In this document: positions 1,368-2,054 of the stretch, one piece after another | How positions within the stretch are numbered: the stretch's first letter is position 1 | Layout: each line of letters opens with the position of its first letter | DNA from: a virus | Lineage: Duplodnaviria > Heunggongvirae > Uroviricota > Caudoviricetes | Virus record (IMG/VR): IMGVR_UViG_2675903429_000012 | Reading direction: 5' to 3' (one strand) | DNA length: 4,546 nt | The notes under the pieces: generated by a model | What the model saw: the letters and a program-made list of their open reading frames with translations, nothing else | Told to the model about the DNA's origin: nothing | Databases searched by the model: none | Made by a program: the position numbers and the translations under genes

Positions 1368-2054
1368 TCACTCCTTCTCTTCTTTACCGTAGTGGAGTTG
1401 ACCAATTTTGATAAGAGGGCGTCCCTGAGATTTGCGGTGTAGATTGGTATCGCGCAGAGAATACACACAGCCACAATATTCCTGCTGATAGAATTTTTCG
1501 CGCTTGCTGATTTCAATCATACGGGACGAGCCGCCCTGCTTGCGCCAGTTATAATCCCAGTACACCATGCCCGGATAATGCGCGACGGCTCGCCGCCCAC
1601 AGTCGTTAACCTGCTGCATATTTTTCCAGCGTGAAATGCCCAGTGAACTGCTGATCACACTGAAACCATTTTCAGCGGCGTACAGCGCTGTCCGCTCAAA
1701 ACGCATGTCAAAACACATGGTGCAACGGATCCCTCGTTCGGGCTCCCATTCCATTCCTTTGGCTCGTTCAAACCAGTTGTCTGTGTCGTAATCAGCATCA
1801 ATAAACGGCACGCCGTGTTGTTCAGCAAAGCGAATATTCTCATCCTTACGAATTAAATACTCTTTCTGAGGATGAATGTTCGGGTTGTAGAAAAAGATGG
1901 TGTAGTCGATTCCCGAGGCCTGAAGCGCCTCCATCACCTCACCGGAACATGGAGCACAGCAAGAGTGCAGTAGTAGTTTGTTTGCCCCGTTTGGGAGCTC
2001 CAATTTGGGCCGTTTGAAATCAGCAACTGTCATAAATATGTTTATTGGGGTCAT
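1368..2054 (-). CDS. queH: QueH-type (DUF208) epoxyqueuosine reductase-like protein, 228 aa
   Basis: Motifs I associate with QueH/DUF208: [22 protein letters not shown]-x2-CF-x-MR and C-terminal QEYCGCVYS. No Shine-Dalgarno sequence was found upstream of the ATG at 2052-2054 or of the Met8 alternative at 2031-2033. Confidence 0.75.

Follow-up and report, generated by a model that had tools for sequence, protein, structure and literature searches.

A predicted QueH-type epoxyqueuosine reductase carried as a moron-like gene by lambdoid prophages of QueG-bearing enterobacteria

The stretch of DNA analysed here (the window, 4,546 nt in all) belongs to a Caudoviricetes record of IMG/VR (IMGVR_UViG_2675903429_000012) and contains genes of a lambdoid prophage enclosed between two partial copies of IS600. 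All the phage genes, including queH, share the minus strand. The features are as follows.

1–102, plus strand: 3' end of an IS600 copy, not phage DNA.
103–409, minus strand: NinB/DUF1367 gene, cut after about 102 codons by IS600 (PF07105 positions 1–102 of 198).
985–1310, minus strand: hok/sok type I toxin-antitoxin locus (PF01848, E = 1e-22; hokD annotation), made up, also on the minus strand, of hok (985–1140), a mok reading to 1197 and the sok/leader RNA (1135–1310).
1361–2104, minus strand: mobile queH cassette of about 0.74 kb, with a predicted promoter, an A/U-rich leader lacking a Shine-Dalgarno sequence, and the ORF (limits from blastn).
1368–2033, minus strand: queH coding sequence from the conserved start M8, 221 aa, with its stop codon at 1368–1370 (a longer, 228-aa reading starts at 2054).
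2068–2076 (read 2076–2068), minus strand: predicted extended -10 element TGCTACACT (TGn + TACACT), 34 nt upstream of the M8 ATG.
2091–2096, minus strand: weak -35-like hexamer TTCCGA (3 of 6 consensus positions), with a 17-nt spacer to the -10.
2202–2615, minus strand: 137-aa zinc-ribbon ORF between the ren-like gene and queH (phrog_1621, E = 5e-56).
2616–3038, minus strand: DUF977/Ren-like gene (PF06163, E = 1e-33; phrog_142, 'Ren-like exclusion protein').
3053–3799, minus strand: DnaC-like ATP-binding replication gene (ydaV-like), from the RefSeq annotation of the matching locus and from the sequence.
3806–4421, minus strand: 3' part of a replication-initiator (O-like) gene, cut by IS600 (PHROG replication-initiation matches; compared with the intact prophage L001).
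4422–4546, plus strand: 5' end of a second IS600 copy in direct orientation, with orfA beginning at 4487.

The window is 100% identical to the IMG/VR contig L015, which contains the element in full (1266 bp, 99.8% identity to annotated IS600). Comparison of this contig with an intact relative indicates that a simple insertion placed the copy at 4422 within the replication gene and that the copy at 1–102 truncates ninB, joining it to the integrase region; homology of the window to the intact prophage ends at position 103, the ninB break. The window prophage is an IS600-scrambled defective lambdoid remnant, in which queH is intact beside its cut neighbours. Positions 3119–3375, in the DnaC-like gene, are masked as N.

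The initial annotation had placed queH between the replication/ren module and the hok/sok locus. The overall context holds, but the 137-aa ORF (2202–2615) separates the ren-like gene from queH. This ORF, for which RefSeq gives 118 aa, ending at 2558, has a weak match to Zn_Ribbon_TF, below the cut-off, and most other queH prophages lack it; upstream of queH one usually finds DUF977 (81 of the 86 loci with phage neighbours). A 95-aa ORF is located between hok/sok and the NinB/DUF1367 side of the region downstream of queH. It had also been stated that queH is the only gene with a sizeable gap upstream, which does not hold, since hok and the 95-aa ORF have gaps of 170–250 bp as well. A search of the whole window against Rfam (E<=1) returned only sok (RF01794, 1135–1310, 117 bits), with no riboswitch, whether for preQ1, cobalamin or another ligand, ahead of queH, and the 182-nt RNA upstream of the gene, when folded (z = -2.4), forms hairpins without any recognisable element.

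In the list of open reading frames queH appears as a 228-aa ORF with an ATG start (1368–2054, minus strand), and the four motifs that had been quoted for its product, including QEYCGC, are all found in the translation. The protein matches the Pfam QueH family (PF02677, DUF208, COG1636) over profile positions 1–174 of 175 with E = 1.9e-65 and 220.6 bits, the gathering cut-off being 23.5 bits, and it matches the sequence of the crystallised Thermotoga maritima enzyme (7lc5) with E = 5e-22. In an alignment of 36 varied homologues (33–86% identity), T. maritima QueH among them, six cysteines (C32, C33, C111, C114, C194 and C196) are invariant, and all six are kept in the window protein, as the proposed identification as a QueH with conserved Cys ligands required. 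They make up the CC...CxxC...CxC set by which enzymes of this family hold an Fe-S cluster and the adjacent metal. C36 is a Cys in at least 90% of these 36 sequences, Asp being the minority state; the latter is found in T. maritima QueH, where the equivalent residue, Asp13, was mutated for PDB entry 9dco. The AlphaFold2 model, built with 35 homologues as input, has a mean pLDDT of 93.7, and its best PDB matches in Foldseek are the five QueH entries (9d86, 7lc5, 7lc7, 9dco and 9deu; E about 1e-14), on which it superimposes with a target-normalised TM score of 0.92 and an rmsd of 1.2–1.3 Å over 179 columns (1.2 Å to T. maritima QueH). The next group of matches consists of PP-loop enzymes of the TtuA type, with TM scores below 0.5. 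NCBIfam gave no HMM match for the protein, though its RefSeq name is QueH.

Profile match, conserved ligands and fold thus identify the product of the window gene as a full-length, canonical QueH, which probably converts epoxyqueuosine (oQ) to queuosine (Q) on tRNA. It shares with T. maritima QueH (7LC5, 7LC7, 9DEU) the full profile, the six cysteines, the fold and the predicted reaction, but the two proteins are only 30–33% identical, they differ at the position of Cys36/Asp13 (the window protein having the state of the family majority), and the window protein has a basic C-terminal tail of about 25 residues, common to gammaproteobacterial homologues, that distinguishes it from the T. maritima enzyme. 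The genes differ in location too, since that of the crystallised enzyme is chromosomal whereas the window queH is borne by a prophage.

Two starts are available to queH. The ATG at 2054, which gives the 228-aa product, is conserved only in the phage clade of E. coli and Shigella, whereas M8 (ATG at 2033) is the start common to the copies of plasmids, Enterobacter and Kluyvera, and it is also the choice of RefSeq, whose CDS (WP_012421537.1, 666 nt) begins at this codon. Both candidate starts lack a GGAG-type Shine-Dalgarno sequence, as the initial annotation had pointed out. Such a sequence is missing throughout the mobile clade (E. coli and Shigella prophages, Klebsiella plasmids and Enterobacter islands), in contrast with many chromosomal queH copies of Erwinia and Serratia, which have GGAG-type sites; judging from these comparisons, its absence is a trait of the mobile clade.

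Upstream of the gene, a -10 element of the form TGCTACA[C/A]T or TGCTAAAAT is found at a constant distance from the start in the prophage, Klebsiella IncF plasmid and Enterobacter island copies, and the same form and distance are seen in the queH copies of Kluyvera, Scandinavium and some Erwinia, the flanks being otherwise unrelated. Other Erwinia copies have GTGACA, 17 nt and TACACT at the equivalent place. A block around the -35-like site (TTCCCGATAGC / TTTCCGATAGC) is also kept in the prophage and plasmid copies. A single match to so short a -10 motif is no evidence for a promoter, whereas conservation of its position across contexts is, and this conservation suggests that the extended -10 is the gene's own promoter. 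A strict scan for two sigma-70 hexamers found nothing relevant in 2055–2201 and missed TGCTACACT. Leaderless translation, for which the initial annotation had proposed a check, seems unlikely, because the -10 is 13 nt from the ATG at 2054 and 34 nt from that at 2033; the predicted leader to M8 is about 26 nt long and A/U-rich.

The limits of homology delimit a compact unit. With blastn, homology of the window to other queH prophages stops at 2104, and that to a Klebsiella IncF plasmid (L007) and to an Enterobacter island (L095) covers exactly 1361–2097, so that the shared unit is the queH ORF with about 45–70 nt upstream. As the extended -10 accompanies the gene in all of these contexts, the unit would be a self-promoted, moron-like cassette of about 0.74 kb. 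Neither direct nor inverted repeats that could explain its movement were found in a search at the borders of the cassette, and GC content shows no anomaly (0.45–0.53 across queH, 0.43–0.55 in the flanks). A terminator scan of 900–2700 found no terminator-like site, and the hok/sok promoter region lies directly downstream of queH.

The gene is widespread in E. coli. It is present in 995 of the 5426 complete genomes (about 18%), at 90–100% nucleotide identity and usually in one copy, under the RefSeq name 'epoxyqueuosine reductase QueH', and hence the layout, a standalone queH that had been regarded as unfamiliar, is neither rare nor unannotated. Since queG was found in 5426 of 5426 of the same genomes, every queH-positive E. 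coli genome encodes two non-homologous enzymes for this step. DUF977, hok or other lambdoid early genes adjoin queH in all 90 of the related loci examined from phages, E. coli, Shigella and E. albertii, which agrees with the view of queH as an extra gene in lambdoid prophages of QueG-bearing hosts. In E. coli FDAARGOS_944 (L001) it lies inside a complete lambdoid prophage adjoining ybhA, with the order integrase, recE/gam, cI/cro, replication, DUF977, queH, hokD, ninB, tRNA cluster, lysis and head/tail; in line with what had been noted for the window, no other queuosine or 7-deazaguanine gene is annotated in this 40-kb region, nor any DpdA/TGT-like or preQ0-pathway gene. queH fills the same position in one ST131 and one O157:H7 prophage, the latter with an NgoMIV-type restriction enzyme and a cytosine methyltransferase downstream in place of hok, and also in the isolated phage HannyBb, whose annotation calls it hypothetical. 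Close relatives of the window queH are present on at least 188 IMG/VR contigs. Shigella sonnei Ss046 has a database entry identical to the 228-aa protein, and at least 1000 S. sonnei contigs encode the 221-aa form under the name QueH, which makes S. sonnei the most probable host of the window prophage. Outside chromosomes, full-length queH is found on 135 plasmids, only two of them from Escherichia, at a cut-off of E<=1e-40 (a looser cut-off of E<=1e-5 inflates the count to 302 plasmids, including 67 from Escherichia).

The nearest relatives outside the phage clade, 85–92% identical, are on conjugative IncF-type plasmids of Klebsiella, on a mini-island of Enterobacter, where queH adjoins a gene for a small tyrosine recombinase, and in Kluyvera and Scandinavium. 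The next tier, at 80–86% identity and of the same length as the window protein, is made up of the core-chromosomal queH of Erwinia, Providencia, Proteus, Serratia, Pectobacterium and Photorhabdus. These core copies lie in housekeeping neighbourhoods (purL-queH-glrK-glrR-glnB in Erwinia, tmcA ... purC in Providencia), and many have a clear Shine-Dalgarno sequence, unlike the mobile clade; several of those of Erwinia have their predicted promoter (TACACT/TACAAT) at a position homologous to that of the window.

QueG, the product of yjeS in E. coli, is predicted to carry out the same reaction as QueH, and both are encoded in every queH-positive E. coli. The two proteins are unrelated in fold and cofactor, and QueG needs a cobamide, whereas QueH does not. 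E. coli and Shigella cannot make cobamide de novo and must import it, and tgt and queA, presumably present in both, would supply the substrate. The cobamide dependence of oQ reduction by QueG was reportedly established by Frey and co-workers in 1988 and Miles and co-workers in 2011, and enteric bacteria are said to accumulate oQ when B12 is lacking. To our knowledge, the last step of queuosine synthesis is the only B12-dependent reaction of tRNA modification in E. coli. Both QueG and QueH have been listed as iron enzymes (PMC9508795).

Taken as a whole, the account that we consider likely is that a canonical, active QueH, captured with its native promoter, provides lysogens with a B12-independent last step of queuosine synthesis. 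According to this account, queH would have been captured from an enterobacterial chromosome along with that promoter, and would circulate as a self-transcribed cassette of about 0.74 kb in lambdoid prophages, at the accessory position that separates the replication/ren genes from the nin region. Since the extended -10 would be the gene's own, expression in the lysogen is expected to occur without prophage induction. The host would make oQ-tRNA via tgt and queA, and QueH, as an iron-sulfur enzyme, would reduce oQ34 to Q34 in tRNA-Asp, tRNA-Asn, tRNA-His and tRNA-Tyr without cobalamin, alongside QueG. As QueG needs imported cobamide, QueH would free this last step from the supply of B12. That carriage of queH gives a fitness benefit under B12 limitation is a conjecture.

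Other roles can be considered for the gene. It could serve the phage itself, as a delayed-early gene read chiefly from pR in lytic growth, by raising Q relative to oQ for better decoding of phage mRNA. The position of queH inside the early-right operon, on the same strand and between the replication and nin/Q genes, fits this idea, and a 2026 preprint on Shewanella reports that infection raises Q and lowers oQ through induction of queG, so that the step from oQ to Q can be a control point. However, tuning by the phage of its own decoding is weakened by codon usage, because the prophage genes are not enriched in NAU (a fraction of 0.54 in both late and early genes, compared with 0.56–0.65 in neighbouring host genes). 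The conserved promoter element of queH also counts against it, as does the maintenance of the gene where there is no lytic cycle, that is, in IS600-scrambled remnants such as that of the window, on conjugative plasmids (queH being present on 135 plasmids in all) and in small chromosomal islands. We regard this role as unlikely.

Less probable, and in our opinion very unlikely, is a part for queH in conflicts, either because the Q/oQ state alters the sensitivity of tRNA to anticodon nucleases or toxins (of the colicin E5 type, or cleaving tRNA-Tyr), or through defence or anti-defence. The gene does occupy a variable accessory hot spot, having downstream hok/sok in most cases and the restriction-modification pair in the O157:H7 prophage, and one of the Klebsiella plasmid copies is found among E1-like and dGTPase-like genes. 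Against such a function, the PADLOC models gave no convincing match to QueH, the 137-aa ORF or the 95-aa ORF, no conserved partner gene was found beside queH among 90 loci, and its sequence is indistinguishable from that of housekeeping queH; the link to anticodon nucleases is speculation.

The decay of the prophage around queH in the window might suggest that the gene is a neutral passenger without a current function, and this we consider extremely improbable in view of the selection acting on it. queH is intact in 88 of the 88 phage-clade copies scored (from phages, E. coli, Shigella and E. albertii; two short contigs with a broken reading, L098 and L099, are outside these 88), and in the window it has stayed whole while IS600 cut its neighbours. 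Against the window copy, dN/dS ranges from 0.017 to 0.082 (for example, 3 nonsynonymous changes compared with 19–21 synonymous ones), synonymous divergence within the phage clade reaches 0.18, and the promoter element is conserved as well. This pattern is what a functional housekeeping-type enzyme with some history of mobility would show, and not what would be expected of a decaying passenger or of a neofunctionalised paralogue. The possibility, raised in the initial annotation, of a divergent paralogue that acts on another 7-deazaguanine substrate, for instance in phage DNA, is hardly credible, given the 80–86% identity to the core-chromosomal queH of other Enterobacterales, the retention of all the family-invariant residues, the annotation of the complete 40-kb prophage, free of DpdA/TGT-like and preQ0-pathway genes, and the fact that we know of no epoxy-type deazaguanine in DNA.

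Phages do use 7-deazaguanines to modify DNA (PMC6884629), and the clusters responsible (DpdA with FolE/QueD/QueE/QueC) resemble queH in that they encode enzymes of the queuosine pathway. They modify phage DNA and do not include the Q-specific steps, whereas what is found here is a lone Q-specific enzyme for the last step, without DpdA. The 2019 survey of 7-deazaguanines in viruses reported no homologue of QueA, QueG or QueH in the viruses analysed (PMC6884629); phage queH shows, contrary to the impression left by that survey, that viruses can carry Q-specific genes of the pathway.

The comparison with lambdoid morons is closer. Like them, queH is a non-essential insert between conserved modules, with a promoter-like element and variable presence; unlike a classical moron, it has no terminator and its base composition is that of the flanks, so that, as judged from the sequence, two of the four classical moron characters appear in queH, the promoter being counted on its conservation. 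Its cargo differs as well, a tRNA-modification enzyme in place of the surface, toxin or exclusion functions of lambdoid morons. With this qualification, the core reading of the initial annotation, a QueH-type epoxyqueuosine reductase encoded by a moron-like prophage gene, is supported.

The QueH enzyme itself is known, has been solved structurally and was already assigned to the window gene by RefSeq. The mobile lifestyle of queH in QueG-bearing Enterobacteriaceae seems to be undescribed: the searchable literature yielded no account of queH on prophages or plasmids in E. coli, Shigella or Klebsiella, a mention in the founding QueH papers being possible. This B12-independent bypass is carried by about one fifth of the complete E. 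coli genomes, by Shigella sonnei and by about a hundred plasmids of Klebsiella. Its strong conservation and its spread suggest that incomplete reduction of oQ is costly in nature, and a lysogen and its cured strain are natural isogenic material for testing this cost. There is a modest chance that the system will reveal why the step from oQ to Q matters.

A further proposal, which we put forward as doubtful, goes beyond the supply of a B12-independent step and would make mobile queH an epitranscriptomic effector, which prophages, conjugative plasmids and small islands would spread on account of the oQ/Q state of anticodons being a contested control point in QueG-bearing Enterobacteriaceae. If this were true, oQ/Q could govern the NAU-dependent translation of virulence or stress genes, or sensitivity to nucleases of Q-tRNA, and carriage of queH would alter the phenotype of the host in B12-poor niches, such as the cytosol of host cells or the competitive gut. 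Tgt-dependent virulence is known in Shigella.

In the PHROGs database, the family that contains queH is phrog_3217, listed as of 'unknown function', with a profile that begins at residue 41 and does not include the CCAPC motif; the comparisons made here give this family a predicted QueH function.

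The 228-aa protein encoded by the queH gene of the window is identical to AAZ87471.1 of Shigella sonnei Ss046, which is annotated as a conserved hypothetical protein, and a protein look-up places the 221-aa form, which begins at the conserved start M8, on at least 1000 contigs. S. sonnei is therefore the probable source of the window, although an identical gene is also carried by E. coli FDAARGOS_944. A search of the protein against NCBIfam release 20 returned no HMM matches, although PGAP names it QueH, so this name must rest on an evidence type other than an NCBIfam HMM. In PHROGs, the protein belongs to phrog_3217 (labelled "unknown function"), which matches residues 41-228. 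The first residue of this profile is Met41 and, therefore, many phage annotations of queH use a truncated start that loses the CCAPC cysteine motif.

The gene is not restricted to prophages. Plasmid searches (E<=1e-40) identified 135 plasmids with a solo queH preceded by the same putative extended -10 promoter element, 96 of them from Klebsiella and 23 from Acinetobacter, and 86 of the 135 are conjugative. Two Klebsiella plasmid loci were examined, L007 (NZ_CP040995.1) and L008 (OW967852.1). On a K. pneumoniae IncF plasmid, repA is located upstream of queH at a distance of about 1.2 kb, and in another plasmid example its neighbours are E1-like and dGTPase-like genes. The gene is also found, 92% identical, next to a recombinase on an Enterobacter chromosome:

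L095 (Enterobacter hormaechei B56 chromosome), 5181-6690: recombinase and queH

Here, a 234-aa recombinase of the phage integrase family is followed immediately by queH, and the pair is flanked by a LysR/acetolactate decarboxylase locus on one side and by an FAD oxidoreductase on the other, an arrangement that looks like a two-gene mini-island.

Three further features belong to prophages that carry queH:

Window, 2202-2615, minus strand: 137-aa zinc-ribbon-like ORF (phrog_1621, unknown function)
L006 (E. coli O157:H7 Z1768 prophage), 6806-8816: NgoMIV-family restriction endonuclease and DNA cytosine methyltransferase
L001 (intact relative prophage, E. coli FDAARGOS_944), 17102-17412: tRNA cluster (Ile, Arg, Thr, Gly)

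Only 17 of the 90 loci in a phage context have the zinc-ribbon-like ORF, an insertion that separates the ren-like gene from queH; most queH prophages carry an unrelated spacer of about 120 nt at this place. In the O157:H7 prophage the endonuclease and methyltransferase genes replace hok/sok just downstream of queH, and this slot is a hot spot at which addiction and defence modules are swapped in. The tRNA cluster separates the Q-like region from the lysis genes, and none of its tRNAs is queuosine-bearing.

A strict scan detected a single sigma-70-like site on the sense strand:

Window, 1317-1346, minus strand: TTGATT-18 nt-TAGAAT

This site lies directly past the queH stop codon and is closely followed by the sok/hok RNA match (1135-1310, minus strand), a position that fits a candidate promoter for the hok mRNA. 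Regarding translation, comparison of upstream regions revealed clear GGAG/AGGTGAGG ribosome-binding sites for chromosomal queH in Serratia and many Erwinia (L105-L145), and no Shine-Dalgarno sequence in the mobile clade, Providencia and some Erwinia. The loss of the queH Shine-Dalgarno is older than phage capture.

Both ends of the window lie in IS600 copies, which share one orientation, are 99.8% identical to annotated IS600 and are complete in L015, a contig that is identical to the window where they overlap and has at least three copies:

Window, 1-102 and 4422-4546: IS600
L015, 2308-3573 and 7952-9217: IS600

One of these copies interrupts the replication gene by simple insertion. The second cuts ninB short and connects it with the integrase region, so that the window prophage is scrambled and defective. 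The central part of the DnaC-like replication gene is masked by 257 consecutive N (window 3119-3375); L001 and L015 have ordinary sequence at the equivalent stretch.
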